A DNA stretch of 64,000 nucleotides, from assembly GCA_964187785.1 (NCBI GenBank), contig OZ076409.1, positions 9,612,001-9,676,000 on the forward strand, in the 5' to 3' direction. A model generated the notes under the pieces. The model saw nothing but the letters and a program-made list of their open reading frames with translations, did no database searches and was not told the DNA's origin. Position numbers and translations under genes: made by a program. The DNA comes from Amphiscolops sp. MND2022 (taxonomy: Eukaryota). Each line of letters opens with the position of its first letter. Positions within the stretch are counted from its first letter, which is position 1. Positions 1-57,133 of the stretch are shown here, piece by piece.

Positions 1-416
1 TGACTGGTGAGCCGCCTGGTATCGCTGTTCAGCTAGCGCGGTGTATTTGCACTAATCGCTGATTGGTCCGATGAAAATGGAATGATATTATTCTGCTAAA
101 GCTCCGTTGTTATTGTAGCGGTAAATTGATTAGCGTGCTGGCCGAGTTAATTTCGGTCGGTATGCTGTTCGTTTTACTGTAAACAAATTGCACTGAAAGC
201 ACTTTAATATTATTTAAGTATTTACATATTTATGTATTTTAGGTACTGCGCTGAATTAACAATGTTTGTTGGATGGTTTAATAGGATTGTTTGTTAATCG
301 TTTCTTTCAGGTTCAGTGATGTTCTTATTCGGTCCTTTTCTGGGTGATTTCTCCATTCCCTTCCTTTGGCGTTCTCCCTGTATTCAGTATTTCGCTGCTC
401 TCTGAGGGCTGCGACA
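1..416 (-). repeat. Visible part (U3 end) of the Gypsy-A 3' LTR
   Basis: Matches 13667-14082. Begins TGTCGCAG on the minus strand directly after a purine tract. Confidence 0.95.
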
Positions 417-1237: not shown

Positions 1238-4200
1238 ATGTCGCATTCGACTGATGAAGATGACCAGCGGATTTTGCGGTCTGGAAAAATTGGAGTTGTG
1301 GAGAGCGAGGGAGAAGGTATTTTGCTACATGAGGCAGGTCAAGAGAGTCATGAGGGAGAGAGTGAAATGACGGGCGTTCTGCTGCAAGAGGCAGGTCAAG
1401 AAAGTCATGAGGAAGAAAGTGCTGCTGAGTCCCGATTGGTTATTGCTGAGTCAAGTGGTGAAGAAGAAGTTATGGAGTCGTTGGCTGGGTTGGAGTCCCA
1501 GTGTGCTAAACGTGGTAGTGGGTTCGGGGAGATTGATAATGATGACTGTTCCGATGACACGGGTTCTGAGAGTGCAAGTAACAATGGCAGTTCGGATAGT
1601 GACGATGCTGGTTCGATGCACTCGACAGGAAGTGATGCACGCCACAATTTGGACTATTTATGTGATTTAGAGGGTAAGTTGCTTAGCGAAATGTTAGTGG
1701 CCAGCTAACTTTTCATGCTAGTATGCAGACGCGTCATTTCATCCACCTTTCTTGCTGTTTTAGGATTGTCCGACGATTCTCGTGATGATGATTATGTCCC
1801 TGGGTCTCACTCTGCTGTGGCATCTGTTAGTGGTGCTAGTCCATCTGAGCAAGGCCGTTGGTCTCAATCTGGAGGGTGTGCTGGGATGACCACTAGATCA
1901 GCGGCGTCGCCTATTGCAGGTTTTGAAGGTGGGTATTTCTTTCTTCCTCTAGCATTATATAAATACCTTGGCTGTGCTCGTTCGAATGATTGTTTCTGCT
2001 TATTGATGGGTACGAGCTGATTTCAGTTGGTTCTTCTTAAGTCCATGGAGAATCTTCTATGGGAGTGGATTCGTCGTCTTCCGATGCAATGGTTGTTCCC
2101 ACTGTGGCCGAAGAGGCTGTGTCGAGTGGTGGTGGTGATGCGGGTTTCCGACCAAAGCGTGAGCGTACACAGCATTCACGACCAGTAGAGGGGTTGGAGC
2201 GGTCGGTCATCCACAATGAGTGGGCAAAAGGTTATTATCGTCTTCAATTATCCGTATCGTGTGTCTTTTGGTTGGTGCCTTATTGTGGGGGGGGGCGTCG
2301 TGTTTGTGCGTTGATTGTTCTTATGAATTCATTGTCTTTTAGCTGGACTAAAGGATGTGCCGGAGGGAGCGGTGTGCTTATCTGCTTCGCAAGTGTTGGC
2401 TTTCGGCCAGGCAGCTGTTCGCTTGGAGCGAACTCATAGTCGAGCAGAAGGACGTTCTCTTTCTCGTCGTAAGTTGTATATGCCTGTTGTTTGCTTGTTC
2501 GCAGTTGTGTCATGATCCCACCTATAGATGTTTAGGGGTACCATATGTCTTCAGGGTTGTCTGGGGGTGGGTTTATGTCGAAGTAGTGTTATCGGGATGT
2601 AATTATCTCTTTGTGTTGTAGAGTTGGACAAAATCATGCAGCTTCTCAAACAGAAGGGGATTCAGTTGGATCGGGCTCTTGGTCATTTGGACGCTGAGGA
2701 GGTGACTAAGAGCAGACTGCTTGCCAAATACGAGAGAAGGAAGAAACGGCAGACCGAGCGTCAGGTTCTTCGAAGAAGCATGGCAATTCACCCTATTTCT
2801 CGTCTGTTCGTTAGCCAGAGGGCGGACAAGAATCCAAACGGGTTCAACTGTGCCATATGTCGGAAGGACATTTCATTTTTGTGGCGGGGTGAACTCGAGA
2901 TCTGGCGGCACTTTGACTGTAAAACTCATTTTGCCAAAGATCAGCGTTATCGTCTCGATCATGAGGATACCGTGTATACCGCCGGGTTTGATGAGATTGC
3001 TGTTGCCACTATTCCTCCTGAGTTGCGTGCAGAAATTGAAAAGACGCCGCCAGTAGTCCTTGGTAAGAAAAATGCCTTCGTGGAGGATGAAGTGGATGCT
3101 CTCGTTGGAGTAGTCTCGAACGTTCCCTCTTCGACGCTTGTGGGTGGTCGGTTTGAGTTGTTGCGGAGCGGGGGATCTCACAGCTTCCTTAGAAGACTCT
3201 GGAGCCAGTTCAGGACAACGATTCCAGTTGAGACTAGCTATGCCCAGGCCACCTGGAGTAAGACTGAATCGTTTGTGGTATTGAGTCAGACTCTGTATCC
3301 GTGTATTCTACGTCGAGTTCAATCTGGCTGCAACAACTCCGAATTCAGTTTGACATTTCGCGAGGATGACACTGGGTTGCGCTGTTTCGTCTGTTTCTTT
3401 GCTGATGATATTATCCGTGAAGTATGTGTTCTCTGGGAGGAGTCTTCTGCGGGTTTGTGTGATGCTGAGATCAAGTGTTTGTCTCGAATTCTTGCCGTTC
3501 TTCCTGCTGGGCAGTCTCCTGTTGCAGTTCGTGGTTGTTCCTCCACATTATTCAATGTCTTCTCGAGCTGGTGCAAAACTGGAAGTCGTCCTGTGCCGTT
3601 GCCTGTCTTGGAGTATACGTCTGACACGTTCCGGGATCATGTTCGGGAAGCTGGGCTGGTTGGAACAAATTTGCTGGATCCTTTTGCCATATTGGATTAT
3701 TTGTTATTGCGCTTGGTTAAAGCTGTTCGTCAACCATGGCTGATGGGTTTATCTGAGTTTCACAGGTGCGTTCGCCAGCGTCAAGTTCCTTTTGCTTCTT
3801 TGTGCGCCGTTATTTCCGAGTTGATCCATCATTGGGACGACGTGAGGTTGTTCCTGAAGGAGACTGGGACTGTGATGCCTCCCAAAAGTAAACCTCCTCT
3901 TGACATAGCGCAGATGATACTTGCGGATACTCTGGTTTTGCCTCGGCTGAGTGTCCTGCATGTGCTCGTATCCTGTTTCCAGGCCAGCTTTGAGAAGCAG
4001 TTTGCAACTGAAGTCACCGATTACACGTGCCGTAATTATGCTGATTTCTGTTATTTTTATTGGGCGTTGCTTGGGAAAGTGAAGAAGTTGAGTGCGTTGC
4101 CTGAGATTGAAGCATGGAGCCAGTATATCGGTCTACCTTTGACGACATGGGCCAACATTGCATATACGGAGTGTCTTCGAGGTGAGCCCCTTGTGACTGT

Positions 4201-5221
4201 GGCTTTGTCGTCCTGCAGTGATGCTTTCCGGCGCACTTTCCTTCGTGAGTGTCAGGGTTTCCTGTTGGAATTCCTGAAGGTGCTCAATCAGTCTGCTTAT
4301 GCGAAGTCGGGTTTGGCATCTAGTCTGAGTTGCTTCTCTCCAGATATGATGTTACTGGGCGATGAGTCATATGCTGTTGTTCTGTTCAAGGATCTGACCA
4401 CCTATTTTTTGGACTGTGGGCGACTAACCTCGTTGGATTGCGAGGCGGCTGCTAACGAGTTTAAATCTTTGCTCATTGAATTGCGCCGTTGGAACAAACG
4501 GGTGGTTTCTTCTATCACCAACAGTTTCATTTTCTTGCGTGATTCCGGGCTACTGGATTGTCGTCTGAATTTGGATCGGGTTGTGCAGTTAGCTGCTATG
4601 GCTGTGGTTCCGCGTGAGGTCTGTTATCCTGTCGTCGACATGTCACTGAGTGGATCCAAGGTTCCGAAGAAGGTGCTCTTGTCCTCGATCTTCGCTTGTC
4701 AGTCGTATGTTTCATTCGATAAATTCGTTTCCGGAGAATTGTTGACAAAGGATTGTCTTGAGGAATTGAAGTACAACTTGCCAAACGGGAAGAATTTTAT
4801 GGATAACGCGTCTTTCTCACCGTGGGGTAATTTGTATATGCATGCCCGAGGTGACCTCTATCGCGAATTGCGTGATGCATTTGATTCATATTATCTGGCC
4901 CAGGTGGCAGACTGGCGCCGGCGAGCTGGTCTGGGTTTGTACTCTGCGTCCTCGTCTCCGGACAAGTTACAGCCTGTGTTGGATTCTCAACAAGTGGATG
5001 CCGTAGTTGGGCCTTCTTCCGGGAAGAGTTCTAAGGTTCCGTCAGTTGTCGCTATCCCACCAACAAAGATGTCTACTGTGTCAGTTTCGCAGTCCTGTGG
5101 GTCCAGCAGTGTAGCGGAAAAGGTGAGGGAGAAGAAGAACCAGCGTCTTGGGAGTGTGCCCAGTTGTTCATCCAGTAAAGAAGCTTCCGGTGTGTCCAGG
5201 AAGCGTAATTCCCAGAATTGA
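1238..5221 (+). CDS. Antisense 5-exon accessory gene of Gypsy-A (~1170 aa); zinc-finger protein, probably hAT-transposase-derived
   Basis: Predicted exons are 1238-1673, 1764-1928, 2042-2230 (alternative acceptor 2027), 2343-2468 and 2622-5221. Four phase-1 GT-AG introns join them in frame. The last exon is the 865-codon ORF with CAIC-x16-H-x5-H. Confidence 0.8.
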
Positions 5222-5668: not shown

Positions 5669-8600
5669 TCAATTTGAAGGGGGATTGCTACGAAGGTTGT
5701 ATTTTCCTTTCCGGGGGGAACTAGGTTCTGGGTTAGGGCCGGGTTCGGGTTGGGTTTCCGGTTGATCGGAATGGTTTTCTGGAAGGGCGTCTGGGTCAGC
5801 GTCCTGGGTACTCATTTGTAGGTTGTCTTCGATGACTTTAGATATGATAGTAGGTTCGCTATGCGTATTGTGTTCGGGTGTCATCACGAAGTGTTCAAAA
5901 CCAGACTGCCATGCTAGGGCGTATAAATCATCGTGTAAGATTTCGACTTCGTTATGTGGTTGGAAATCCTTTGTTTGAACCTGGATGTCTGGCAGGCGGC
6001 CTTTGGTAGGGCATGGTTTCAGTCGGATCCTGTGTAGGATTTGTGTTTTGTTTGTTTGTAATTTGCGAATTAGGTAGTTATTGTTGGGGAGAGTTTTGAC
6101 TATTACGAATGGTCCTGTCCATAAGAACTCCCGGAAAGGTAATTTCGATCCCTGAGTGTTTGCCTGGGGGTGTAATGCGTAACAGTAATCGTTTGTTACT
6201 AGTGGGTGGGCTGCTGCTTTCTTGTCATAGTACTGTTTGTACCGTATGTATGAGTGGAGGAGGTGTTTACTCACTGATTCGTGTATCATTCGGGTCTTTT
6301 GGACGACTTCTTCGCCTATGTCTGTTGTTGGATTTGGTTGCTGGTTCTGTTTAAGGCCAAATTTGAGGTCGAGAACATTATATGGTATTCTACCATGAAA
6401 CACCCGGCTGGGTTCGCAGCCAATTGCCGAATGATACGTTGTGTTATAATTTAGCGTGGCTATTGGTACAAATTGGTGCCACATTGTTCGTCTTTCTCCC
6501 GTTGAGATTTTCAGAGCTTCTTTGAGGGATGCGTGGCAACGTTCCAGGATGCCTATCGTTTGGGCGTGCTTTGTTGTGGCGTGACGTAGTTGGATACCCA
6601 GTACACGTGTGGTGTCTGCTACTACTTCTGACATGAATTGTGTTCCTTTGTCGGTTATTATTGTTGTAGGTAGGTAGGCATGCCGTGTCATAATGTCTAC
6701 CAGTACTCTCGCGATTGTCTTTGCGTCTATTTTGGTGACGCAGTATGTGAACAGGTAGCGTGAGAATATGTCCATGGCTGTGACTATCGCTGTGAATCCG
6801 TTCGATGGTTCATCAAACGGGACGATGTCCATTTGTAGGGCGTCTTCTGGTCCCAATGCCAGTTTGGATGTATCAATCATTGGTGGGGTGAGGAGACGGT
6901 TGTCCGTCCGTTTTGTTTGCATGCATTTCATGCATTGATTGATGTGTTTGGCTATTTTTGCTGCAAGATCTGGGTAATAATATTTTTCTATACACTGTTG
7001 TATCACCTTTGTTATCCCAGGATGTTTGTCGTGCGATCCGTGGTGGGCCTCTATAAATGAGTCGACTAGTTGTTCTGGTAGTAAGACCTGCAAGTATTTG
7101 ACTGCCCCGGTCTCTCCGAAATACTGCCGGTATAGCAGTCCGTCTTTGAGTATGATCCAGGATTCTTGGGCGGTGTATTGGAGTGCTCTGTGGTCTGTAG
7201 CCATTAGGTGTTCATCGTATGGTTCTTTGAGTAGGCGTAATTTATAATTTCGGAGGACTTTGTCTCGGTCCTGTTGGTGTCTCATGTCACGGGGGAGGGG
7301 TTTTTCGTTCTCTTCAGAGTTTTGTGTGCGTCTGGTTATTTCCGTTTGAAATACGACAGTGGCTTCTTCAGCGTGGGTTGTGTTGTTGTTTGTTTCTTCT
7401 CCTGGCGTTTGTGTGGTGTCGTTCTCCTGTATCTTTTTGCGGGCTCTCTGCTTCCTCTCCCAAATTTGCTCCTCTGTTTCGATGTCGTCTTCGGGGAGGA
7501 AGTAGAATTGTTCTTCTTCGGCTACGTTGGAAGACTGAATGTGCACCTCTATTGGGGTAGTTTGAATGTCGTCTCTTATGAGTAGTTGGACTTTCTCTTT
7601 TGGATCTAGGTCGAGTCGTGAGAGGAAGTCTGCGGCAGTATTCATCCTTCCCGGAACGTGGGCGATTGTGAAATTAAACTGTAGGACGAAATGGCAGGCG
7701 TTCCACAACGCTGGTGGTATTATTTTGGTCTGGAAAAATCGTGTAACAGATTTGTTGTCTGTTAGGACGATGACCGGTTTGGTCGATCCCCACAAGATGT
7801 GGCTGTATTCCATGAAGGCAAAATATATAGCCAGGAATTCCTTGGCATATATCGACATTTTGATTTGTGACGGCGAGAATGTTTTGGATCCAAACGCAAC
7901 TGGTGCGTATGTCTTTTTGACCGAGGTCAGCTTTTCATCTGCGTTTTCTTCGATCATGAGGGCGTAGCCGGCATTCTTGAAGTTCGCGTCGGTCATGAGG
8001 ACATATTGCTTGTTGGGTAAGGGTTGTTTCAGCCATAGTCCACAGGCATTGTCTAGGGCTTTGTTGATGTTTTCGAATGTCTGCATGATCTCGTTTGTGA
8101 TCTTGATTGGTTTGTCTGCCTTGACTAACTCGTGGAATGGTGCGATTTTTTCAGAAAGGCGAGGTATGTAGTTTCGATAATAGTTAACGAAGCCGATGTA
8201 TCTCTGTAGGCCCTTTTTGGTTTTCGGGAACGACAGTTTTTGTAGGTAGTTTTTAATCTTGTGAGGTTTTGGGGCAATGCCTTCGGGTGAGACTGTTCGT
8301 CCAAGGAATTCGACTTCCTTGGCACCGAACTGACATTTAGCCATTGTCAGACGCAGACTTGCTTCCCTAATGCACTGGAAGACCTCACGCAGGTTGTTCT
8401 TCAGCTCCTCGGTAGTATGGGTAGCTATCCCGATGTCGTCAACGTACTGGGCACACTTGTCAGCTTTTATGACTCGATCGAGGTACTCCCGCATAAAGCT
8501 CGAGAAGGAAGAGAGGGATCTGCTGAGCCCTTGTGCGAGTCGCAGGTAGGCGAATGTCCGACTGGCAAAGTTGAACGCCAGGAGTTCCACTGATTTCTGG

Positions 8601-9525
8601 TCCGCCATTTGCAGGACATGGTAGGCTTGCGAGCAGTCAAGCTTGCAGAACAGTTTCTTTCCGGCTAGGTGCTGCGCGGCGTCCGAGAGGGTGCTCACCG
8701 GGTGGTTGTTGTTTATATAGTCGTCAGAGATGAGGTTGTTAATCTTTCTCAGATCAACAAGAAGGCGAAGACGTCCGTTAGCTTTTCTTTGCGCAAAAAT
8801 TGGGCTTGCGTACTTACTGAAGGGGAGTGTCGTAATGATGCCGTAATAGTGCATCAGTGCTAACTCAACTGTCAAATCCTCCTTCAAGTTGACTGGGCAT
8901 GGTAAACTTTGTGTGTATGCAGGTTGGTCTGATTTGGGGGTGAGTTTTATTTTGAAGTCGTTGTTGATTCCAATGTCGAGGCAGTGCCTTGCAAAGATGT
9001 CGTTGTATTCGACAAGAATCTCTTCTATGGCTTTCTTATCTTCGTCGCCGAGTTGGGAATCAGTCCACTTGAAGTTGGCTAAGAATGTGGCTCTATCTTC
9101 GGGGCTGTTGTGTGGGTTGAGTTTCTGGATGTTTTCCAGTTCTTCTATCTTTCTGAGGATTCTGCTTTGGATGGGAGTGTGTGTTGATGGGTCTCCTGGG
9201 TTATCTAGTGTGGGGAACCAGAAATTCTGTGTTGTTTGGGGTTTTTCGGACGATTTCAGGAGTTCATTGACGTATTCGAGAGCCTGTTCCGTATTGTCTT
9301 CTGCTAAGACCTTGAGGGCTGCCGAATTGAGTGGATGAAGTTGTTTAGCTTCCTGGGGTGACAGTATAGTGAATTCTGCGACGTTTGCGTTCTTTTTGAG
9401 GGTGAAAGGGTTTGGTGATGTGTTGGTGACCCGTATTTCGATTTTTGAGTTTGAGACCGTGGATAGAGAGCTGGCCACTACTAGTTGGTGTTCTCCTGAG
9501 TATTGTTCAGTGGGGTGGATAACTC
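5669..9525 (-). CDS. pol: Gypsy-A pol: reverse transcriptase, RNase H, integrase
   Basis: RT motifs YASPIF, LRLLVDLRKIN, KLDCSQAYH, YVDD. RNase H motifs LMTDAN, EFLAI, VLTDNK, ADFLSR. Integrase HHCC (H..HPG..CMKC), QMDIV / TDKGTQF / ERCH, and WTGPF (GPY/F). Confidence 0.97.
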
Positions 9526-10992
9526 TGTGGTGTTTGTTATGGTACGCAGGTTAATGCCCGCTTCAATTGTTATGCATTGGTCGGGCATGATGGTGAGTTG
9601 GTTTTTGATGGTCCCCTTGTGGTGTCTTGACACTCTTTCGTTGTCTTCTGCAGCGATTGCGTAGGTCAGGTGTGGGAAGTGCAGCAGGGCCTGGCTTACG
9701 TCTAGGATGGCGCTGTTATTCTTCAGGAATGATAGCCCAAGGATAGGACCTGTCATCTTTGTAGCTACAATAAATGTCTCTTTAAACGTCCAATCCCCTA
9801 ATTCGAATTGGAGTTGGACGGTTTTCGTTGGTGTTTCTATGTCGCCGTTTGCGACCTGTAGCTTGAAGGCGGGTGGGTCCATTTCTTTGAGTATGTTGTC
9901 TGGGCTGACTGTTTTGATTTTCTGGTACTCACTTTCTGGTAGGCAGTTGACTAGTGCTCCTGAATCAACTAGTGCGTCTACTGATAGATTGTTGAAATCC
10001 ATTGGGGCGAAAAGCATCTTCCGCTTCTTTTTCAGGTTGATGGCTGAGAAAATTGGTATGCATTTCTCGCTTGTGTCTGGATCTGTGATAACGATTTCGT
10101 TTAGTTGTTTGTTGGTGTGGATCCAGTCTTCGTCTTGTTCTGGGATGTGTAGTTGTCTGGTTGGGCTCTGCGTGCCGGTAGGTGATCCGTCTATCACTGG
10201 GTTAGTTTTTGCCCTTTGGTTGAATTCGTTGGTGAGTGTTCGTTTCACACGGCGGGTTCGGGGTTTTGCTGTTAATGTGGTTGCCTCTGTGGGGTCCCCT
10301 GCTTCTTTTTTGTTGGCTGAGTATTCGTGGGTAGAATATTGGTGTTCAGGGCTCTGTGGACTAGAGGGGGACGACGTCATAGCTGCCCGTATTTCGTTGG
10401 AGGTGGCTGGGAGTTTCTTGGGTGACTCATGGTCAACCGGTGGTGGCTGGTTCTTATGTTTGAGTATCGACTTAAGGGAAGTGGTTGGTGGCGTTACGAT
10501 CACTGTAATTTCTGTGTCGTGTTCTTCTTCAGCCTGTAGTTCGGGAGTATGACTTGTGTCGTCCTTCCTCTTTTGGGTTGTCGAAATGTCCATGTTGGTT
10601 CTGGTTATGAATTCATGAAACGGTACGTTGATGGATTGTTTGGAGACAAGTTTTTCGGTGTCGTATAGGGTTTCGTTGTAGTACGGGTCACAATGAAAGT
10701 CTGGGTCATAGATGTAAGTTTCGGGTGTGGAGCTTGGGAGTAGTGGTCTACGGGTGGAGTTGTAGTGGGTAGGGTTTTGGGTGTACCAGTCGGGGTAGGG
10801 GAGTTTGTCAAGGGTGTTCTTGTTAAATTTAATGAGACGCCGGATGAGCCATCGTTGCTGCCAGTCGATCGATGATTCTCCAGAGCATTCCATAAACAAT
10901 TCTTTATCGAAGTCCTTCGGGGGTTCAGAGATGGTATAGTATCTGAAATCGGTGTAGTCCCCGAAGCGAAGACGTGGCTTTAATAGTTTTTT
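9481..10992 (-). CDS. Gypsy-A pro region: long low-complexity spacer plus aspartic protease; separated from the RT frame by an apparent 1-nt deletion near 9525
   Basis: Retropepsin motifs ALVDSGA and ILGLSFL. The frame is open from the gag slippery site. Adding one G at ~9525 gives continuous ...NTTGVIHPTEQYSGEHQLVVASSL. Confidence 0.88.
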   Translation of the reverse strand, partial: KKLLKPRLRFGDYTDFRYYTISEPPKDFDKELFMECSGESSIDWQQRWLIRRLIKFNKNTLDKLPYPDWYTQNPTHYNSTRRPLLPSSTPETYIYDPDFHCDPYYNETLYDTEKLVSKQSINVPFHEFITRTNMDISTTQKRKDDTSHTPELQAEEEHDTEITVIVTPPTTSLKSILKHKNQPPPVDHESPKKLPATSNEIRAAMTSSPSSPQSPEHQYSTHEYSANKKEAGDPTEATTLTAKPRTRRVKRTLTNEFNQRAKTNPVIDGSPTGTQSPTRQLHIPEQDEDWIHTNKQLNEIVITDPDTSEKCIPIFSAINLKKKRKMLFAPMDFNNLSVDALVDSGALVNCLPESEYQKIKTVSPDNILKEMDPPAFKLQVANGDIETPTKTVQLQFELGDWTFKETFIVATKMTGPILGLSFLKNNSAILDVSQALLHFPHLTYAIAAEDNERVSRHHKGTIKNQLTIMPDQCITIEAGINLRTITNTTELSTPLNNTQENTN

Positions 10993-12398
10993 GGCTGGGT
11001 AGGATGTTGTATCGCGGCTGGTGGTTGTTGGTTTGCTTGGGGTTGTTGCATAATTTCGGGTGTGTTTGATGGAGGTAGAGGTATGTTGTTCGAGCCGGTT
11101 GTTTTAGGTGTCTTCCACCATGTGGGGCGGTTTGCCCAGTTCGCACCCGAGTAGCAATCCTTGGTTTCGTGACTCAGTTTACCACAAGTTTCGCAGGGGT
11201 TGGTGTTATTTGTGTTGGGGGTTCTTTGGCTTCGTTTATCTCGGTTCGTCTTCCTGCAGTTGCGGAGGTGGTGGCCCTGATGTCCGCAACCGAAACATGT
11301 ACTCGCGGTTTTCGGTGGTTTTTCTTGGTTGGGGTTGTTGGTGGGTTCTACGTTATGTATGCCTGTAAATGTCGTGGATTCTGGATTTGCCAGTCCGTTG
11401 AGCTCCATCTCCCGCTCTAAGTGCTGCACCATTGTCTCGTATGACGCTGTTTCGAGGCGAGCTTGGTTTAGCACTCTTTTGAGGTGGGCGAGCATTTTTG
11501 CATAAAACGAGGTTTCTATAAACCTGGGCGCGTCGTCCGCGTATGCCTCTTGTGCCAGCTTCTGATAGATTTCTAAGAAATCTCGGAAAGTTTGGTTCGC
11601 CGGATCGAATGTGAGGTTCTCCCACTTGCACCTGGCGGTAGCCACTGATTGCGTTTTTACGTATCGTCTTCTGAACCCGGCAATTATGTCGGTTATGTTT
11701 GTTTTGGTTGTCTCGGTCATATTCCGGAAGGTTTGCAAGGCGTCTCCTCGCAGCAGTGAGTGAAAATAGTGTATTTTTTCTTGCTCTATTATTTGTGGAT
11801 GGACTTTCAAGCTAGTTTGAAACAAGTCTTCGAATAGCTCGAATTTTTCTGTCTTACCGTCATACATTGGCATCGTTGTTGATAGGGCTTTTGGTAAGCG
11901 AGGGATATTTGGTGTTTGTTTATGGGTTGCATAGAGAGATTCCAGTAATTTGTCGATAATCTCATCTGAGTGCCTCTGGTTTGGAGGTGGCAGGCTTGAT
12001 GATCGGGCTTGGGTGTTATTGCTGGTCGTTGGTTCGTTAATGACTCCTGTCACCATGTTGGAGTATTCACTTCTACTGAAGTCAATTTCTTCTACTTCAT
12101 CAGCGGAGTTTCCGTTATTTGCGACTCTATTGGTCAAACAACCACGTTTTGAACTAGTGCTAGACAAGTTGTCCACTTTTGATGACAAGTTCTCAATCAG
12201 TTTTAGAATTTCCCGCTGGTTCAATTCAGTATCTCTAAGACGTTTTGAAATTTTATTTTCGATTTTATTGGAAATGTCCTCAAAGTCTCTATCAGACAGT
12301 AGGGTGTTTTCGTCATTAGTTGAACTCGCTACCTCTTCGTCCACCTGGCCAGTTGACTGGTCACTTCTGAGTTTTCGTTTCTGAGACCTTTCCGGCAT
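10980..12398 (-). CDS. gag: Gypsy-A gag (472 aa)
   Basis: Capsid-like segment (MYDGKTEKFELFEDLF...LLRGDALQTF) and two CX2CX4HX4C knuckles (CFGCGHQGHHLRNC, CETCGKLSHETKDC). Confidence 0.95.
   Translation of the reverse strand: MPERSQKRKLRSDQSTGQVDEEVASSTNDENTLLSDRDFEDISNKIENKISKRLRDTELNQREILKLIENLSSKVDNLSSTSSKRGCLTNRVANNGNSADEVEEIDFSRSEYSNMVTGVINEPTTSNNTQARSSSLPPPNQRHSDEIIDKLLESLYATHKQTPNIPRLPKALSTTMPMYDGKTEKFELFEDLFQTSLKVHPQIIEQEKIHYFHSLLRGDALQTFRNMTETTKTNITDIIAGFRRRYVKTQSVATARCKWENLTFDPANQTFRDFLEIYQKLAQEAYADDAPRFIETSFYAKMLAHLKRVLNQARLETASYETMVQHLEREMELNGLANPESTTFTGIHNVEPTNNPNQEKPPKTASTCFGCGHQGHHLRNCRKTNRDKRSQRTPNTNNTNPCETCGKLSHETKDCYSGANWANRPTWWKTPKTTGSNNIPLPPSNTPEIMQQPQANQQPPAAIQHPTQPKNY
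10986..10992 (-). promoter_or_regulatory. -1 ribosomal frameshift slippery heptamer A AAA AAC (gag to pro-pol)
   Basis: In gag frame CCA AAA AAC TAT TAA. The -1 frame is open into the protease ORF (LLKPRLRFGDY...ELFMEC). A stem CTTCGGGG/CCCCGAAG lies downstream. Confidence 0.8.
12043..12055 (-). promoter_or_regulatory. Primer binding site TGGTGACAGGAGT (tRNA-Leu-like)
   Basis: TGG directly follows ...CCAACA. It matches the complement of the metazoan tRNA-Leu(CAG) 3' end (TGGTGTCAGGAGT, from memory) at 12/13 positions. Confidence 0.7.
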
Positions 12399-14082
12399 AA
12401 TTTTAAAAATACCAGTTGAGAATACTCAATTGAATTGGATGACAATATTAGTAACCGAGGTTGGTCGGTCAGCTGGTCAATCAACCAAAATCAAATACAA
12501 TTAGTATCAAACACGTGGAGGGTCCGCAAAATTCAAGATTAAAATTGAATACAATTTCAAAGAACGAATAACAAACGATTACAAAGTTGAAAAATAATAT
12601 CTGTCCTTTCCTAATCCCGCTTCAGGTATATATACTTTACGCTAGACACGCGGGGAAAACCCCGCGCGTGAATTCACACCTCGTTCAACTCGGCGTGTTT
12701 TCCAAGAAGAGAAAATCCAAATAAGGTAGGCTTCCTCGGGATTCGGCATTCGGCTTCATCCTGCTTTCAAGTGAAAGCGGGAATCACTTCCTGCCGCTTC
12801 CCAATTCCGCGTCCCTTTCTTCTTCATTTCCCGCCTTTTCAAGACGCCGAGTCAAAGTTGGCACTGAAAATTCATGAACCTAGCTACTGAGGCGGGAAAA
12901 GGAACTGATTTTACATCGAAGAAATTAGTACTAACTGAAATAAATTGCACTAAATTGGAAAATGGATTTCAGGCAATATTAATCTCACAAAGTGATCAAT
13001 TTTATGGAGTAATCCACTGATTAAAATTCTGGTCGAATACCAGGACGACCTATCAGCTTGGATTTCCGGAACACATGACCGGACATTGAACACCATAAAC
13101 TAGCACAGGGAGGGGGGTTTAACACAACTTTAATGGCTACAGAAAGTATTATTCCGCCATTATTATTATGCCATTCAAACAATAATAGATCAGAACAAAT
13201 TGATAATTAACACTTATCACAACTTGGTTAATCTTTTACTCGTACTCAACCAAAACGGTTGCCCTGGTGGTCGTCCTGGGGTGGAGTATTAGCAACACGG
13301 TAATATTTGAACAAAACACTGCACGATGAACGAAATAATGCTTTGGTGGGAGAATTAGACCAAGTTTGTTATATTAATTAGGTTACACTAATGATTAATG
13401 CACATTAATATTGGTTATATTAGATAGGTTATCCCGGTGGTTGTCCCATTTTGGGAAGTAGATTTGGACGGCCAGGCGGTTGACCTGAACAATAAATCAA
13501 ATACTTTCATCGTTTAGGTACTTCAACATTTCCATCGGTTATTTATTGGTGGTTAGAGCTTCTTTTAAGTTCCGTGTTCATATTGAAATGGTACAGCATT
13601 TATGTAGTAATAATACTGCTTCGGTTATTTGAAGCGTGCGGCCAGGCGTGCGTCCCAGCACTCGATTGACTGGTGAGCCGCCTGGTATCGCTGTTCAGCT
13701 AGCGCGGTGTATTTGCGCTAATCGCTGATTGGTCCGATGAAATTGGAATGATATTATTCTGCTTTAGCTCCGTTGTTATTGTAGCGGTAAATTGAATAGC
13801 GTGCTGGCCGAGTTAACTTCGGTCGGTATGCTGTTCCTTTTACTGTAAACAAATTGCACTGAAAGCACTTTAATATTATTTAAGTATTTACATATTTATG
13901 TATTTTAGGTACTGCGCTGAATTAACAATGTTTGTTGGATGGTTTAATAGGATTGTTTGTTAATCGTTTCTTTCAGGTTCAGTGATGTTCTTATTCGGTA
14001 CTTTTCTGGGTGATTTCTCCATTCCCTTCCTTTGGCGTTCTCCCTGTATTCAGTATTTCGCTGCTCTCTGAGGGCTGCGACA
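12056..14082 (-). repeat. Gypsy-A 5' LTR (~2.03 kb, TGT...ACA)
   Basis: The outer end is fixed by the match to 1-416. The inner end is inferred from AACA followed by the PBS. Confidence 0.75.
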
Positions 14083-14097
14083 CTTTTTGATCCTAAG

Positions 14098-14921
14098 TGT
14101 TAGGACTACTGTCTCTAGGTGTTCTAAGGTCACCAGTAGACCGTGAGTCCTTTTTCGTAATTTTATTTCTAAGCCCATTGTTCATTTCAGCGTCTTCCTG
14201 GCTATTAGGGGACGAACCGGCCTCAGTGTCTCGGTTCCCTCAGGATGAAATTGAGCTCACTATATTTTGAATTTCTGGAATTTCTCTTTCGGTTATCGCT
14301 GTGCTAATCGCCCTGTTTATCTGGCTATGCATTAATGACATCATAGAATCCGTTTCTTGCGAAAGTCTCATGTTAAATTCGCTAGTGAAAATTTCTAGTG
14401 TTTCTTGAAACTTATCCTGCCTGGGAATTGCCTTTTCATGAGCATAATGTCCGAATTCATTTTCATGAGTCTCATACCGCGAAGATTGGGGATTGGACTC
14501 AATGTCTTGATCGTTTGTCACATTTCCAATCATTTTTGAAAGTTTGCGTTCGATAGGATTGGTGTTTTTATTCCCAATCATTACATCCATATTTTCAAAA
14601 TCAGACATCATGTCCATTTCCCTTGAAATTCTAGCTTTCGCCTTTTGTTTTCTTGTGAAAGGCATAAGAGACAACTGCAAGAGGTAAAAATTGATTATAT
14701 GTAGGCTTGCAAACAGAACAAGATCAATTGATAGGCTGCGTATATTATCAAATTGTGTCCCCGGTCCAAGAGTCCCGGTTATATATATCAGACAAATTGC
14801 ATGACTATCGAAAAAATAACTGTCATGTTCTAAAAATAGATAAGTACTAATCTAAAGATAGCATCAATTATTTATAGGTTACATGACGTAATGTCCTAAT
14901 GGCCACATCAAAGGCGTTACA
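14098..14921 (-). repeat. Gypsy-B 3' LTR (824 bp, TGTAA...TAACA) containing the gag N-terminal coding sequence (ATG at 14665)
   Basis: Begins TGTAAC directly after a purine tract and ends CCTAACA. Duplicated at 29155-29770. Contains a TATA-like run at ~14780. Confidence 0.75.
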
Positions 14922-14936
14922 CCGCCTCGTTCATCT
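14922..14936 (-). promoter_or_regulatory. Polypurine tract of Gypsy-B
   Basis: Minus strand AGATGAACGAGGCGG abuts TGTAAC. Confidence 0.6.
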
Positions 14937-15594
14937 GTTTCAACTAACGCCCTCAAGGGACAATTGTTTTTTTTATGATTATGATAGCAACACTACATGT
15001 AACATTCAAGCAATAATTACATGTTTTGATCACACTCGTATGTACTTTAGACAGGAGAGTTTGGACTTTGGCCAAATACGGCCTTTGAGCCAAAGAGAGG
15101 GTATCAGATGTAGCACCTTTATTTGTAAGAACGTAATTGCACGCAATACTTTTCTTCAAATTAAATCTCTTACCACAATCATGAAAGCACCGGTCAAATT
15201 GGACTCAGTGTCCCATTGCCTTAACGAGTATATCAATATTTGAGAATAAACGGCGCGTGGCCATAATGTCCACTTTTAATAGCACTGTATTAGAGTGCTC
15301 AGCTGAATACTGAGATGTGATTGGTTGGAATTAATTTGGACTGCTTGTCCACAGTGACCAGATAGGAAACACTTTGAACGCGTTTTCTCTACCTGTACGC
15401 TTTGGTGTCCAATTCATAGCACATCTAATTACATTTACATGTTTTAAAATGCAACTAACAAGCAATACTGCATCTCACTGTATGTAACTACATGTTATAA
15501 CAAAAACCAGTAAAACAAAACAGTTTTATCGTAAAGTTTTAATTATGTTCGCCTTGGACTTCTTGGACTTCTTGGCTCAACTGTTGGTAATTCC

Positions 15595-15864
15595 TCAATC
15601 TAGCGGAATTGTTCCTGGTAGGGCCCTGCAATAACCATATGCGACCGTGTACCAGTTACCATCGCAGGCGGCCACCTGCGACACTCCCCTTGGCATGAGT
15701 AGAAACGTGCCAGCGGTGATTCCGTAAAGGAAAGCTCTCTTTCTTCTTTCGGTTTCAGCTAACGTCTCACCTAGCCCAACCGTTTTGTCGATATAGTCAT
15801 TGACTGCTTCATCTTGTATTTGTTGAACTGACTTCCCACAAATCACGCAGTCTGAACAACCCAC
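15595..15864 (-). CDS. Small Cys-containing accessory ORF or fragment (CxxCxxC) in the Gypsy-B 3' region
   Basis: 89 open codons with CSDCVIC and protein-like composition. It starts at GTG, so the true 5' part is probably broken. Confidence 0.4.
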   Translation of the reverse strand: MGCSDCVICGKSVQQIQDEAVNDYIDKTVGLGETLAETERRKRAFLYGITAGTFLLMPRGVSQVAACDGNWYTVAYGYCRALPGTIPLD

Positions 15865-17401
15865 CAGGCCAGCGTTTCAAGCCACTGTCATGTCATTGAA
15901 GTGGTTTGCACTAGTCTCAACTGAAGTTGTGCTTGTCGAATAAGAGCAACTCGGTGTATCTTGTTCTTAGGCTGGTCCTCTATCTTCTGGTGGTGGCGAC
16001 ATTGGGGTTTTAAAATTCGGACGTAGATCTCTACAAATATTAATGGGATGATTGGTTCTGATTCGGTCATCCCGTCCGATAGGCCCATTGCCCATACCAG
16101 GTTGAAAACCTGTTGTGTAATTGTAGGGAAGGGCGACAAGTCTGAGTCAGCTGATTTGGACGGTTGAAATTGTATGAATGGCGATCTTTCTCCTCATTGC
16201 CTCGCGGGATTTTCAACAAATCACGGGTTTTCTTTTCCCGGGTTTTCTGTTTCCTTTCCCGTCTGGTAAGTTTTCAAAAACAAAATTTCTCTTCTCAAAA
16301 CCTTTCATCAAGCCGCCAAGTCGCTTTATATCTGCCGACAATTACTTTGTTGATTATCATCAGTTATGCTAGCACTCTCAAGTTAGGAGTGTTACCGCAA
16401 GTGTTTATTAATACTCATCAGGTACTTGAGAGTTTCAAGTAGGTGAAGATATGGCGACCGGCCACGCCGTCCTCCATCAATCTGATCATCCAATAGGAAT
16501 GCAGCAAAATTTCTCCTAAGTTAATATGGCTTCTCAAGGCCGTAAATCCATATAAGGAATGATATAAAATGACCTTGAAACTAAATAAAATAATGATTAA
16601 ATCATGAAATAATTCCCAAAAATAACAAAATTTTCTAGATAAATCAATTGATGTAGATACCGCTGGCAGTCTTCACCCACATAATGCCGTATATTGTGAA
16701 CAACAACAAATTTGACACCAAACTGTATAGCCACAAACTCCAGTTTTGACATCTTGTCAGATTGCTGATTCAATTTCCAATTCCTTATCCTCAATTCTCT
16801 CATTTTCTTCTTCACTTGTATTACCCAGTATTCAATCCTTGTCATTTACAGTATTTAGCCGATAGTTAGTCAATTAATTTCTAATTGTAGTTATCATAAT
16901 GATAGATAACTATAATGATTTGTACTCCTCTTCAACATAGTCTTCCTCTTGGGACTCAGTGTCCAATCGCCCATTCTCTTGTTGATTTTTCGGATTTCCC
17001 CGGACAATCGACTTCCAGTTCCCTTCTTGGCATCTCCCTAGCACGATTTCTGGTTTCCTCTCAGATTTGAACTTCTCCACGCAGTGTCGTCTTTTTCAAT
17101 TACCTTGAGCTACAGCCTTGTCGGATTGCTTCAGATTTCATCAACAATTCAGTTGACAGTCCAACCTGCCCTTTCTATCACGCGACTTCAATCCTACAAC
17201 TTCAAAGTAAGTTGCCTTCCTGTTCTATTCTGAACGAAGTTAGGTTTGATCAGGACTCTAATTCAGTTCATGTACTTCCTGTCCAATAACACAAGTTTTC
17301 ACGAGTGTTCACTTTTATCTACTTCCGGAAGATTTTCAAATGCGGTAAATGGATTCTTATTCAGGAAGCTTTCCGCTTGACTTTGTTGTTACTATTTAAG
17401 A

Positions 17402-20400
17402 ATGACAACCGGAGCTGAGGATACGGCTAACATCTTGCTAGACAGAAACCGCCGGTAGTAGAAGGGGCCAATCCCCCTACTGAGACCCGTCCACTCTCCA
17501 ATTTTTCCTCTTCGAGTTGAGCCACAGAGGAGAGCCTCGCTGCGTATGCCGAACGCACTTTGCACAAACTTGGGGCAGTTGACGGTAACCTAGACGTCTC
17601 CTTCCTAGATGCCCCAAACAGGACGCCCAAGCCAAGGCCTCTGTGTCAGACGCGATCGAGCGCGATTAAATTCCACAGACTCAAACAAAGGATGATGATC
17701 CAGCGAATGTCCTTGATTCAGCCAATAGGCCTACACGGGATATTGTCCATTCCGACTTCTTTGCAAACGACACGAGCGAAGTGGAGGATCTGATTGACAG
17801 CGAAGGGGTGTTAGGAGTCCCTAATTGGGCAGCTTCCAGTATCGTCGGTTCTGAGAATTTCACTACGCAAGATGAGGGAAATTTTGCCATTGAAGGACTT
17901 CCAGTTGAGCCCCAACCCAGTACTTCTTACGCTGGAACAAAAATTCCAGAACAGCTTTCAGCTAACGGGAGGGCCGTCCTGCGTATGTTTTTTGCAAAGG
18001 CCGAACCAGTCACCATTCCTATTTGACATCCTACCGTCGCATTTAATGAACCCCAACTTCATGCCATCTTGCGCACTATTTCTTCTGAAACAGTCCAGTC
18101 TTCCGTGCATGTTATGTAGGCCTTATTAATGCACGCAGCTCAAGGAGGAATCCAGAAGCTCAGTAATTTCCGAAAGACTGTACAACGGACAACATCTGCT
18201 TCTCAACGCATGTCTGATAGTTCAGACGGGGGGACAGACACTGAAGGGTATTCCACAGATGGTTATACGAGTGGCGCCTTACCCTCCGATGAAGAAATTG
18301 CCACTTTCGATGTGAGCCGTAACACTCACTTTGCCTCGACCTTCGGTGCAACGGATCCTCAGGGATCTGAAAACCCTGATAAAACTGCCCTCAGTCCATC
18401 CCAGTTCGGGATCCCAAGCCCAGGATTCAGTGCAGGAGATTATGCTCCCCTATCATCCATTAGGGCCTCACCGACTGCTACTCCAACTGGCCGAAGTCCA
18501 CCCCGTAAAAGACGCAGAATGATTAGCAAGCTTGGGAAGGTAATGAAGCCTGCGTACTTCAAGGGCGTACAGTGGACGAGAATCTTTGTCACCGGGCCAC
18601 TAGACCCTGTACACAATAAATACAATTTTTTTGCCAAATTTGTAAGAGCAACTTGTCGATATTCTCAAAAGGAGCACGCGAATTCATCAGGCACTACCAG
18701 TCGGAAACTCATCCCCGAAAAGATCAGCGCTGGAGATACGAGAACCTGGGAAAGAAACACAAAATAACAGGAGTCACCAAGCATGAATTCCGGGCTAAAG
18801 AAGGCCATATTTCAACATCAATGGAGTTGGCGAAAGAAAAACTTTTTTGAATCTGCTGTTCTCGTCGACATCGGACCCAAATATCCATTCTCTAATGAGT
18901 ATCTGGAAAGAATGGGGTGCAACACTACCCCGGCTGTTGTGCGTCTCGGCACCGAGATTTCCCTATTGGGACTTTTCACCCGACACTGTGGCAACATCTC
19001 CGTGCTCCAATCCCTGTGGACTGAAGTCGGTGCCTTTACGAACCACGAGGATCTCTTCTCGGACATGGACTAGGGGTCGAGCGCACTTACGGTATGTATC
19101 ATCCGGTAGATTGATTTTCCGATTCTAGAGTCAAGTTCTAAAACTAGCACCTTTATTGTGTTCTTTTCAGACCATTTTCCACCACGTCTTTATTCGCGGC
19201 ATAAAAGACATTGGATAACACGTGAATACCAGTGGCTTTTACATACTGGAAATTGAGTACGAAGGCAGTTTCAGCGTGATGTCAATACGACTCTGGAAGA
19301 ACGATTCTTTGACCAAGTGCCAGTTAGCCCTTGATGCATCTGTCTACCTTGATGCACTGTCTACCTTGATGCATCGCAAAGAGGGGACTGTCTTCGGACG
19401 CATCAACTTTCACACTCTGTTGAAGTACCTGGTTGCGTCCCTCAGTGGCTGCCAGTGTGAACCATGGATCGTCAATACTCCTGAGTTGTCCAAGGGGCTC
19501 ATCATCACAGACGATTCCTTCGTTTGCAAGCTAGACTTCTTCGGACGGACGGTCACTGATTGTTAGTATTCTATAATCGTTTCCACATGTTCCCTTTTTC
19601 CGTAAACCTTTAAAGGTCCCTTCAAGGTGGTTACTTCTGTTTGAAATTGCATTACCCGATTCCTTTCTGTCTTAAGAAAACAAGTGTTTCGAGCGGAGCT
19701 TGCAAGGCCGACGCGATTCTGATTTCTTCACTTATGGCCAACTCAACCAACATGTGAGAAAGCTTGGTTACCGTTCCCTGCTTCCAAAATTCGTTCCTCG
19801 AGAGGGAGATTGGACCCGATTAGGAGAATTACAAATTGCGACCATACGTCAGTTGTCCACTGAGGATTTCCTGATTCGCCTCAATCGCAGAACGGATCTG
19901 GACGCTGCCGCCGTGGCGATGGCTGAGAGGGAACTGGGCGAGCACAAACCCACTGAGGCTGCTAAAGCTGAACTTGCTGCAACCTATAAAGAGGAATTTG
20001 CTAGTCGGGCACGAAGTTATTTTTTTACTTGAGGAATGTTTAAACCACATCAGCCTCAATGCCGACATAGTCAAGGGAATGGCCACGTTCGATCCTCACA
20101 TATTACTAGGCCACGTTCGATCCTCACATATTACTGGGCAATTCTATGGAGCAGGCCACGTTGTCGACTTAGTGTTGTTCTTTTACCCGCACAGTCTTAC
20201 TTTACAATGGTGCCTAATGGTATTGCCCACCGCAGGGGTGAAGATTCCTTGGATAAGTTTAAAGAGCTAGAGCAGCAGTTTAACTCTGGTAATGGATCCA
20301 GTGATCCCTGGTCGCATGTGGATTCCCTTGGCCGTGCAAAGTTTCAGAAGGTGCTATCCTCCGTGTACAGAGTGTCTAAGGCTGCTACCTCTAGTCGATC

Positions 20401-20560
20401 CGCTTCTGAGTCAGATTCTGCTTCCTCCACACCTTCTCCTCGTAAGGCTAATCGGAAGGTCGCATTCGGGCCTGAAGTTACCCCCGGAGGCAGCTGCGCA
20501 GGAGAAGGAGTCCGTTTCAGCTCCCCGAAGCCAAATAGTTCTAAAGACTATGTGTACATA
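17402..20560 (+). pseudogene. Decayed antisense accessory gene of Gypsy-B, homologous to 1238-5221
   Basis: Across frameshifts: RIFVTGPLDPVHNKYNFF-CQICKSNLSIFSKGAREFIRHYQSETHPRKDQRWR, VLQSLWTEV, MATFDPHILL, DPWSHVDSLGR and a Ser-rich tail. All are colinear with the Gypsy-A protein. GT-AG intron at 19092-19170. Confidence 0.8.
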
Positions 20561-20794
20561 GTGTACATTTGTTTCAAACTTCTGTCTGTTTGTAATTCTG
20601 TTCATTGTAATTATTGTATTTGTAGTATCACATATTGTTTGTTAATTGCTATCTGTGGTCTTTAGATACTACGCCACTAAGTCGCTTTGTCGACGTGTGT
20701 TTGTTTTCTAAAAACATACAAAGGTCTGAGTAGTCCCAGTTAAAAATGATCATTTGGTCCAAGTGGCCTTTGGGACATTAATTTACATGTCTGA

Positions 20795-23700: not shown

Positions 23701-24400
23701 AGCGCATTGGTCGGCTTTTATAACACGATCCAGATATTCTCTCAAAAAACTGGAGAAGGCCGATAGGGCTCGGCTGAGTCCTTGAGCTAATCTCCTGTAT
23801 GCAAATGTCCTGCTGGCGAAGTTAAAAGCTAGCATTTCAATGGATTTCTGGTCCGCCATGGGCAGACAATGGTAAGCTTGTGAACAGTCGAGTTTGCAAA
23901 ATTTTTTTGCCGGCCATGTGTTGCGCATCATCCGTCAAGGTGCTGACTGGGTGGTTGTTATTGACGTAATCATCTGAGATCAGATTATTAATTTTTCTCA
24001 AATCCACCAACACTCTCAGTTTTCCATTGGGTTTTTTCTGCGCAAATATGGGACTGGCATACTTTGAGAATGATAATGTCGTTATAATGCCATATTTGTG
24101 AAGTAGTGCCAGTTCGACCAATATGTCCTCTTTGAGGTTGACCGGAGTAGGTAGGCTCTGACTGTAAGCAGGTGATTCGTCCTTTGGGGTCAATTTGACT
24201 GTAAATTTTTCTTTGACGCCAATGTCAAATCTATGGCGTGCGAAAATATCATGGAATTCTACTAATAGAGTTTCTATTTGTCTGATCTCATGCTGTTGTA
24301 GCATTGAGTCTTTCCAGTCAAAATTGCCGAGGAATTTCCGGCGGGATTCTGCGTCGTCATGCTGTTTGAGTTGTTCTAAATCTTGCAAGTCTCGTAATTC
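20795..24400 (-). pseudogene. pol: Gypsy-B pol (RT, RNase H, integrase), many frameshifts and stops; 5' part missing
   Basis: Fragments ARHRFDIG, YASPIF, KLDCSQAYH, LVDD, LMTDASF, HRHPG, QIDL, TDKGSAF and YRWIG, clearly paralogous to Gypsy-A pol. Confidence 0.95.
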
Positions 24401-24419
24401 TCAAGAAAAGTCTCGTAAT

Positions 24420-29154: not shown

Positions 29155-29770
29155 ATTTCTAAACCCATTGTTCATTTCAGCGTCTTCCTGGCTATTAGGA
29201 GACGAACCGGCCTCAGTGTCTCGGTTCCTTGAGGATGAAATTAAGCTCACTATATTTTGAATTTCTGGAATTACTCTTTCGGTTGTCGCTATGCTAATCG
29301 CCCTGTTTATCTGGCTATGCATTAATGACATCGTAGAATCCATTTTTTGCAAAAGTCTCATGTTAAATTCGCTAGTGAACGTTTCTAATATTTCTTGAAC
29401 CTTATCATGCCTGGGAATTGCATTTTCATGAGCATAATGTCCAAATTCATTTTCATGAGTCTCATACCGCAAAGATTGGAAATTGGACTCACTGTCTTGA
29501 TCGTTTGTCACAGTTCCAATCATGTTTGAAAGTTCGCGTTCGATAGGATTGGTGTTTTCATTCCCAATCATTACATCCATATCAAAATCAGACATCATGT
29601 CCATTTCCTTTGACTTTCTAGCTTTGGCCTTTTGTTTTCTTGTGGAAGGCATTAAAGACAATTGCAAGAGGTAAGAATTGATTATCTTTAGGCTTGCAAA
29701 CAGAACAAGATCAATTGAAAGGCTGCATATATTATCAAATTGTGTCCCCCGGTCCAAGAATCCGGTATAT
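29155..29770 (-). repeat. Gypsy-B 5' LTR (partial) with gag start (ATG at 29652, MPSTRKQKAKARK)
   Basis: Direct repeat of ~14165-14785. Confidence 0.8.

Positions 29771-54705: not shown

Positions 54706-57133
<2,428 letters not shown>

Follow-up and report, generated by a model that had tools for sequence, protein, structure and literature searches.

How could a protein-coding gene divided by introns be retained in an element that multiplies by RNA copying? This question is raised by a stretch of 64,000 nucleotides (nt) from Amphiscolops sp. MND2022 (assembly GCA_964187785.1, contig OZ076409.1, positions 9,612,001 to 9,676,000), the whole of which is called the window below. Near its left end lies a long terminal repeat (LTR) retrotransposon. 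A preliminary description had drawn in it, antisense to gag and pol, a gene with four spliceosomal introns, and had suggested that antisense orientation protects these introns during retrotransposition. According to the analysis presented here, positions 1238–5221 of the plus strand are very probably a real protein-coding accessory gene of a Ty3/Gypsy-like animal LTR family. The persistence of its introns is considered below together with the other readings of the locus, the conserved non-coding blocks of the element and the systems known from other retroelements.

Gene structure and its preservation among genome copies

The predicted parts of the gene in the window copy are as follows:

1238–1673 (+): exon 1, 436 nt, beginning with ATG 1238 and encoding an acidic N-terminus rich in Ser, Asp and Glu (from subfamily comparison)
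1674–1763 (+): intron 1, phase 1, 90 nt, AGG/GTAAGT..TTTTAG/GAT (coordinates re-read)
1764–1928 (+): exon 2, 165 nt (from subfamily comparison)
1929–2041 (+): intron 2, 113 nt as drawn, AAG/GTGGGT..CTTCTTAAG/TCC, with its 3' end at 2026 (CAG) or 2041 (AAG)
2042–2230 (+): exon 3, 189 nt, starting at 2027 with the CAG acceptor
2231–2342 (+): intron 3, phase 1, 112 nt, AAG/GTTATT..TTTTAG/CTG, with a variable poly-G tract
2343–2468 (+): exon 4, 126 nt, with the motif AGL.(D/E)VP.GA(V/I)C(L/M)S.SQ(V/I)LA(F/Y)G.AAVRLE
2469–2621 (+): intron 4, phase 1, 153 nt, GTC/GTAAGT..TTGTAG/AGT, with three in-frame stops if retained
2622–5221 (+): exon 5, 2600 nt, an open reading frame (ORF) of 865 codons with its stop at 5219–5221

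Re-reading of the sequence bore out the four GT..AG introns of the preliminary description at the coordinates listed, all of them in phase 1, with exons of 436, 165, 189, 126 and 2600 nt. Joining of the exons gives a coding sequence of 3516 nt, i.e., 1171 codons and a stop, with no internal stop codon, in agreement with the product of about 1171 amino acids (aa) proposed earlier. The joining supplies ATG 1238, as had been claimed, but the accompanying statement that the long ORF lacks an ATG of its own does not stand, since the in-frame ATG 2636 is its fifth codon. By its sequence, each of the four intervals qualifies as a predicted spliceosomal intron, the 3' end of intron 2 being ambiguous in this copy.

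The gene is situated between the pol stop at 5669 (−) and the 3' LTR edge at 416, on the strand opposite to pol; this is the placement and strand of an antisense additional ORF (aORF-3R type). Such ORFs are expected in most copies of a family and not in a single transduced copy, and here 53 genome matches and five subfamilies were found. The matches were scored from 11,836 first-look candidates in a search of the same genome (1.07 Gb) with the 865-residue ORF. Subfamilies were distinguished by the identity of the last-exon protein to subfamily A, to which the window copy belongs: A 93–100%, B about 77%, C 57%, D and D2 about 48%, with two intermediates. The comparison covered 30 A loci, 15 B loci and the two intermediates; C, D and D2 were each represented by 3.3 kb of upstream sequence from a single locus.

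The ATG and the four introns are present at matching positions in the five subfamilies; all introns are in phase 1, and 20 of 20 have GT..AG ends. The positions of introns 1, 3 and 4 coincide exactly, and that of intron 2, which lies in a poorly aligned low-complexity stretch, coincides approximately. Intron lengths change modulo 3, but those of the exons always preserve the frame. Exon 1 comprises 436, 403, 382, 436 and 517 nt in the five subfamilies (always 1 modulo 3), exon 2 comprises 165, 195, 195, 192 and 192 nt, the lengths of exons 2 and 3 are divisible by 3 throughout, and exon 4 has 126 nt in every subfamily (its divergence among A copies is 1.26%). The corresponding intron lengths are 90, 89, 92, 91 and 89 nt (intron 1), 113, 66, 96, 68 and 70 nt (intron 2), 112, 113, 102, 93 and 109 nt (intron 3) and 153, 154, 162, 128 and 143 nt (intron 4). 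Retention of any one intron would introduce an in-frame stop or a frameshift (20 of 20 introns). The T content is 42% in introns vs 29% in exons, and introns 2–4 of A and B can barely be aligned, except at their ends.

Between A and B, the ratio of non-synonymous to synonymous substitution rates (dN/dS) is 0.18 in exons 1–4 and 0.055 in exon 5, at a proportion of synonymous differences (pS) of 0.69–0.74, which means saturation. Judged by these ratios, the antisense gene is under purifying selection.

Individual copies give a similar picture. ATG 1238 is kept in 28 of the 31 other A and intermediate copies (the remaining three lack this stretch) and in 15 of 15 B copies. The preliminary description had predicted that GT/AG dinucleotides would be conserved among copies and that indels would be more frequent in introns than in exons. 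Both predictions hold: 243 of 248 splice dinucleotides are preserved in the 31 A and intermediate copies, as are 119 of 120 in the 15 B copies, and indels amount to 1.70 events/kb/copy in introns vs 0.19 in exons of A copies. Intron 3 accounts for 22 of the 23 intron indel events, mostly in its poly-G run. Divergence among A copies is 4.68% in introns 2–4 vs 3.17% in exons. Of the other A copies, 17 of 29 have an intact spliced coding sequence, and so do 13 of 15 B copies. On the basis of these comparisons, we regard the five-exon gene with its four introns as a genuine property of the family.

Persistence of the introns and alternative readings of the locus

Positions 1–416 and 13667–14082 of the window are 98.08% identical and form the LTR pair of the host element. 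Its other features, on the minus strand, are the following:

1–416 (−): 3' LTR, inner part only, continuing to the left of the window; U3 edge at 416 (from the match to 13667–14082)
5669–9478 (−): pol with reverse transcriptase, RNase H and integrase, convergent with the antisense gene (Pfam RVT_1, RT_RNaseH, rve, Integrase_H2C2, Integrase_p58_C)
9481–10899 (−): protease ORF (Pfam gag-asp_proteas)
10980–12398 (−): gag (Pfam DUF1759, Retrotrans_gag)
13667–14082 (−): 5' LTR stretch matching window 1–416; outer U3 edge at 14082 (from LTR comparison)

The three ORFs between the LTRs carry, in minus-strand order, DUF1759 with Retrotrans_gag, gag-asp_proteas, RVT_1, RT_RNaseH, Integrase_H2C2, rve and Integrase_p58_C. 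With its LTR pair and this order of domains, the element is a Ty3/Gypsy-like (Metaviridae-like) LTR retrotransposon of about 14 kb, running from right to left. The protease and pol ORFs are in the same frame, with two consecutive stop codons between them (9479–9484, −), and the gag and protease ORFs overlap in different frames. When the left flank of the window is added, the homology extends over 2027 nt (window −1595 to 416 vs 12056–14082, 97.8% identity), taking in the leader as well as 342 nt at the start of gag. Because this homology reaches into gag, the left LTR must be common to a second, truncated copy in tandem.

The preliminary description placed the antisense gene inside an LTR retrotransposon. 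That it is an integral part of the element is supported by its position inside the LTR pair and by the pol C-terminus, which is found convergent downstream of the gene at 30 of 30 A loci. This C-terminus occurs in two variants among A copies, one about 96% and the other about 85% identical to that of the window copy.

The expression of the gene could proceed as follows. An antisense transcript would start from an internal promoter in 958–1237, be spliced four times and then be translated. The genomic RNA corresponds to the minus strand, where the introns would read CT..AC and would offer the spliceosome no recognizable sites; reverse transcription would therefore retain the introns and copy them into every new insertion. 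Thus the introns would persist in an RNA-copied element because the genomic RNA, being antisense to them, does not splice them. All four introns have in fact outlasted the divergence of at least five subfamilies, which in an element copied through RNA is to be expected only if the genomic RNA leaves them unspliced. This explanation of persistence is sound, and its principle is already known. The preliminary description went further and supposed that the gene could gain introns like a host gene. This part found no support, since the same four positions are occupied in 5 of 5 subfamilies, with no visible gain or loss.

Three other readings of the plus-strand unit have to be weighed against a spliced accessory gene. 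The long ORF could be the whole gene, translated from ATG 2636 or a codon nearby, while the upstream ORFs would be leader or chance and the introns would stay unspliced. Such a start codon does exist in frame, the public gene calls of relatives begin there (e.g., the 861-residue P0001), and the splicing of four introns is deduced from sequence comparison. However, ATG 2636 is not kept in subfamilies C and D, exons 1–4 evolve at a dN/dS of 0.18 with saturated synonymous sites, and five subfamilies have preserved ATG 1238, the reading frames and the splice sites in spite of intron lengths that shift modulo 3, which makes this reading very improbable. Slightly more improbable is a unit whose main function lies in its antisense RNA, from which double-stranded or small RNA directed against the element would arise, with incidental coding capacity. 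Spliced non-coding antisense transcripts of HeT-A, TART and L1, as described in excerpts of PMC2615633, would be its precedent; a dN/dS of 0.055 over 865 codons and 0.18 in the upstream exons speaks against it, as does the frame of about 1170 codons, which runs uninterrupted in 13 of 15 B and 17 of 29 A copies. Finally, the gene could belong to the host or to a nested DNA transposon and lie between pol and the LTR by chance, a reading favored by the proximity of the protein to hAT-transposase-derived families in a language-model look-up. This can be regarded as extremely improbable: the gene lies inside the LTR pair, in the same position and orientation beside pol at 30 of 30 A loci, it is adjoined in 5 of 5 subfamilies by the same sense ORF (ORF210) and conserved intergenic region, and the Pfam search gave no match to a transposase family.

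Within the reading of a spliced accessory gene, the acceptor of intron 2 has its own alternatives. It had been noted that the CAG acceptor at 2024–2026 would put a TAA (2038–2040) in frame, and this proved correct. In the model drawn for the window copy, intron 2 ends at AAG 2041, the stop at 2038 is intronic and the 1171-residue protein is intact. In favor of this model, the frame is open, a T-rich tract precedes AAG, 30 of 31 other copies retain the AG at 2040–2041, and the two acceptors are 15 nt apart, so that either keeps the frame in other copies. The stop, however, is private to the window copy (0 of 31 other copies), and therefore it cannot be the reason why the family would use AAG. 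The TAG acceptor of subfamily B aligns with 2024–2026, and the 15 nt between the acceptors, open in 29 of 29 other A copies, encode V-G-S-S vs V-V-S-S in B; the intron of the family thus most likely ends at CAG 2026, so that it would have 98 nt and exon 3 would have 204 nt. In addition, A is the least favored base at acceptor position −3. The AAG model of the window copy is consequently rather doubtful. With the acceptor at 2026, the window copy would probably be a nonsense mutant with a stop five codons into exon 3, that is, a dead allele of a live gene family.

Several points weigh against the reading of 1238–5221 as a spliced and translated gene. Splicing is inferred from comparison of copies, and the exact 1171-aa product of the window copy depends on an AAG acceptor chosen around the private stop, this copy being open only in that case. 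No AATAAA or ATTAAA occurs within about 480 nt past its stop, although subfamily B has an AATAAA about 200 nt past the stop. The loci were chosen by last-exon similarity, so the shares of intact copies come from a biased sample, in the choice of which the upstream exons played no part. A search for processed copies, with the flanks of exon 1 and exon 2 lying 0–20 nt apart, gave no place in the genome; it is a weak test, as its control with flanks 80–100 nt apart found only 16 places, few copies having the exact flanks. Lastly, the role proposed below for the protein draws on one short motif and a language-model lead to hAT transposases.

Conserved non-coding blocks, the encoded protein and neighboring features

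Upstream of the antisense gene, two further parts of the element were recognized:

325–957 (−): ORF210, 210 codons in the sense orientation of the element, between the antisense gene and the 3' LTR
958–1237: conserved region of 280 bp between the divergent genes (from five-subfamily comparison)

The last 30 or so codons of ORF210 (about 90 nt) are inside the LTR. Full-length matches with 66–80% aa identity are present in B, C, D and D2, and the length varies from 210 to 219 codons across subfamilies. No Pfam family was found for ORF210, and its 48 homologs are all without a name. ORF210 and the antisense gene are arranged head to head around the region 958–1237 in 5 of 5 subfamilies. This region is 279–301 nt long in the five subfamilies and contains long invariant blocks; its right-hand 170 nt are 81–90% identical between subfamilies whose N-terminal proteins are 40–60% identical. 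We infer that 958–1237 is a candidate bidirectional internal promoter and 5' untranslated region (UTR) common to both accessory genes. It contains TTACGTCA at 1132, which we take to be similar to a cAMP response element (CRE-like). A pyrimidine-rich, acceptor-like YAG/ATT is located 16 nt upstream of ATG 1238, and a 5'-UTR intron may end there.

The family also appears mosaic. ORF210 and the left intergenic part group A with C (80% aa identity) and B with D and D2 (B–D 86%), while the antisense gene groups A with B; these discordant groupings, like the two pol C-terminus variants of subfamily A, point to recombination between subfamilies.

A second conserved block is found in intron 1. Its core of about 65 nt (approximately 1682–1747) is better conserved than the coding exons. 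Between A and B, intron 1 is 93% identical (82 of 88 positions), with synonymous sites at pS 0.69, and over all subfamily pairs the core is 80–93% identical, the N-terminal proteins of these subfamilies being 40–60% identical. The divergence of intron 1 among 29 A copies is 0.65% vs 4.68% in introns 2–4, and among B copies it is 1.36% vs about 3.5% in introns 3–4. The core includes a 5-bp inverted repeat GTTAG..CTAAC around an invariant TGGCCAG, as well as the 8-bp palindrome GACGCGTC. A pattern composed of three core motifs occurs 202 times in the genome vs 0 in the reversed control.

This constraint, stronger than that on the exons, suggests that intron 1 is kept for a further reason than its antisense orientation. 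The core could be a cis-acting signal needed by the element family and placed in an intron free of coding constraint; this is possible, although we do not regard it as the probable case. Candidate roles are a site for the zinc-finger protein of the element, an enhancer for both divergent genes and a hairpin of the antisense pre-mRNA. One stem pair of the inverted repeat alternates between G..C and A..T; in the first 100 of 191 genome hits, counted by eye, the mixed states were G..T in 3 and A..C in 0. In a helix test with five sequences, 100% of positions were paired, with two double changes, and 15 of 500 shuffles scored equally high. The folding energy of intron 1 is no better than that of shuffled sequences (z between −0.39 and +0.64 for both strands of three subfamilies). 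Searches of Rfam gave no match in 900–2800 at E up to 1 and none in the whole window at gathering scores. Recognition of the core sequence by a protein, on DNA or on RNA, would fit better than a stable RNA fold.

The protein of about 1170 residues would consist of an acidic N-terminus (exons 1–3), the exon 4 motif and, from the start of exon 5, a basic stretch. A zinc-finger-like motif of the C2H2 type, C-x2-C-x16-H-x5-H, is situated at about 2849–2929 and shared by at least 20 of 22 family members; it is followed by about 750 residues with many invariant Trp, Cys and charged positions. A Pfam search returned no match for the protein at E up to 10, hence none to the bZIP domain, and nothing meaningful was found in 22 relatives or 18 distant representatives. 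The sole hit of a profile among PDB sequences was at chance level (E 0.089), and a profile search of 1.84 billion representatives yielded 830 hits, mostly fragments, none of them with an assigned family. Among the relatives from other genomes, P0009 represents a lineage with no more than 53% identity to any sequence of the genome studied here.

In the language-model look-up, the nearest neighbors of the 865-residue part were the hAT-transposase-derived clusters FAM200, ZBED5, GTF2IRD2, DUF4371 and C17orf113 zinc finger (0.91–0.94). The protein resembles hAT-derived proteins in having a C-x2-C..H-x5-H motif near the N-terminus of a large domain; they differ in that it has no Pfam match. Profiles of the RNase-H-like core and of hAT dimerization detected nothing in the window protein, the 22 relatives or the 18 distant representatives, and a search for DUF4371 in the same genome gave 0 matches, as did its control. 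Kinship with hAT transposases is therefore taken as a lead and not as membership. That the protein is a nuclear nucleic-acid-binding regulator of the element can be put forward only tentatively.

To the right of the host element (Gypsy-A in the preliminary description) lies an older Gypsy-like element, Gypsy-B, at 14165–29770, with LTRs at 14165–14784 and 29155–29770 (92% identity). Its antisense gene is decayed and represents another family; the zinc-finger motif is similar. The preliminary description pointed to an intron of this gene (19092–19170) at a place where Gypsy-A has none. The interval is indeed intron-like: its donor is kept in 3 of 4 copies and its acceptor in 4 of 4, while the interior has diverged. 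A like-for-like comparison, however, is not available. The two genes share only 39 residues around the zinc finger (41% identity, tblastn), and alignment of the family profile with a Gypsy-B-type fragment by hhalign covered 15 columns with a probability of 17%. Since the gene structures cannot be compared position by position, this intron was rejected as evidence of gain.

Other Gypsy-B copies contain about 297 nt near 19495 (search coordinates) that have no counterpart in the window copy. A Bel/Pao-type fragment is nested in Gypsy-B at 25175–28123 (+), with Peptidase_A17 (E 1e-34) and Integrase_H2C2; the Pao-type peptidase occupies 25897–26778. This peptidase and the wnt-family genes of the same genome (E 3e-45) point to an animal host, both being restricted to animals; sequences resembling pol come from mixed phyla and are uninformative in this respect. 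An assembly gap of 200 N follows the element (29771–29970). Further to the right, tandem arrays were found with a 9-nt period (54652–54868 and 56897–57173) and with a 38-nt period (37525–37783 and 63111–64000).

Significance and comparison with known systems

According to parts of a 2020 review (Vicient and Casacuberta, PMC7264820), the function of antisense accessory genes of LTR retrotransposons is unsolved. The family described here could serve as a clean system for this question, with numerous young copies and no fewer than five diverged subfamilies in one animal genome. It also offers a multi-exon gene that is clearly under purifying selection, a sense ORF partner, a conserved upstream region and a conserved intronic core, and it allows a testable hypothesis to be formulated, namely that a DNA-binding regulator of the element recognizes its own intron or promoter. 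For genome annotation, it should be kept in mind that gene finders that mask transposons and ORF callers of the prokaryotic style give the last exon only (calls of 861–890 residues), and that intron-bearing genes inside retroelements cannot safely be assumed to be host genes.

In the full texts searched, no description was found of a protein-coding antisense gene with several introns in an LTR retrotransposon of an animal, and two publications, Zhao et al. (2011), on brtn, and Steinbauerova (2011), may bear on this point. As far as that search shows, the gene family, its ORF210 partner, the shared upstream region and the intron core are undescribed.

The closest likeness in placement is found in plants. 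According to excerpts of PMC7264820 and of Ustyantsev (2015, PMC4408406), Gypsy elements of plants and fungi can carry antisense accessory ORFs that lie between pol and the 3' LTR; among the plant Ty3/Gypsy elements these include Grande gene23, RIRE2, Retand and PvRetro13. For the Grande ORF, an internal promoter of its own and a nuclear protein are reported, and the suspected function of such ORFs is regulatory (PMC7264820, in part). The gene analyzed here has the same place and orientation and is likewise present in most copies of its family. It differs in the animal host, the length of about 1170 codons, the four conserved introns and the head-to-head sense ORF partner, as well as in the protein, for which neither PMD, Transposase_28 nor any other Pfam family was found. 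The word 'intron' is absent from the 2020 review of antisense ORFs.

In fungi, an antisense gene, brtn, is reportedly carried by Boty-like Gypsy elements of Botrytis (Zhao et al. 2011, as cited in PMC7264820 and PMC8365987). Like the gene described here, it would be an extra antisense gene of a Ty3/Gypsy element, with the difference that its host is a fungus.

Spliced antisense genes that encode proteins are known from retroviruses. Excerpts of Barbeau and Mesnard (2011, PMC3185765) report them in human T-cell leukemia viruses HTLV-1 to HTLV-4, HBZ of HTLV-1 and APH-2 of HTLV-2 being protein-coding genes with spliced transcripts. The major spliced form of HBZ, a bZIP factor of 206 residues, has its transcription start and its initiation codon, the latter in exon 1, within the 3' LTR (PMC3185765, in part). 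The gene of the Amphiscolops element shares with HBZ and APH-2 the status of an antisense coding gene of a reverse-transcribing element in which an intron survives replication, its splicing being predicted from comparison. Unlike HBZ, it has four introns, a probable internal promoter and no bZIP match, and it belongs to an endogenous Gypsy-like element and not to an exogenous retrovirus. ATG 1238 is located 822 nt inside the LTR edge, with ORF210 and the conserved intergenic region between them.

The survival of introns through an antisense template has been recognized in other classes of retroelements as well. According to excerpts of Arkhipova et al. (2013, PMC3846280), introns in antisense orientation remain unrecognized in Penelope-like elements, so that the antisense template keeps them. 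That case concerns another class of retroelement and host genes mobilized in trans, whereas here the introns belong to a resident accessory gene. Antisense transcripts of HeT-A, TART and L1 are described in parts of Shpiz et al. (2009, PMC2615633) as spliced, non-coding and variable, with partly cryptic splice sites. These non-LTR elements have in common with the family studied here the antisense-strand introns that persist through retrotransposition; the present gene is distinguished from them by fixed splice sites and by a reading frame that, as its substitution pattern indicates, is under purifying selection.

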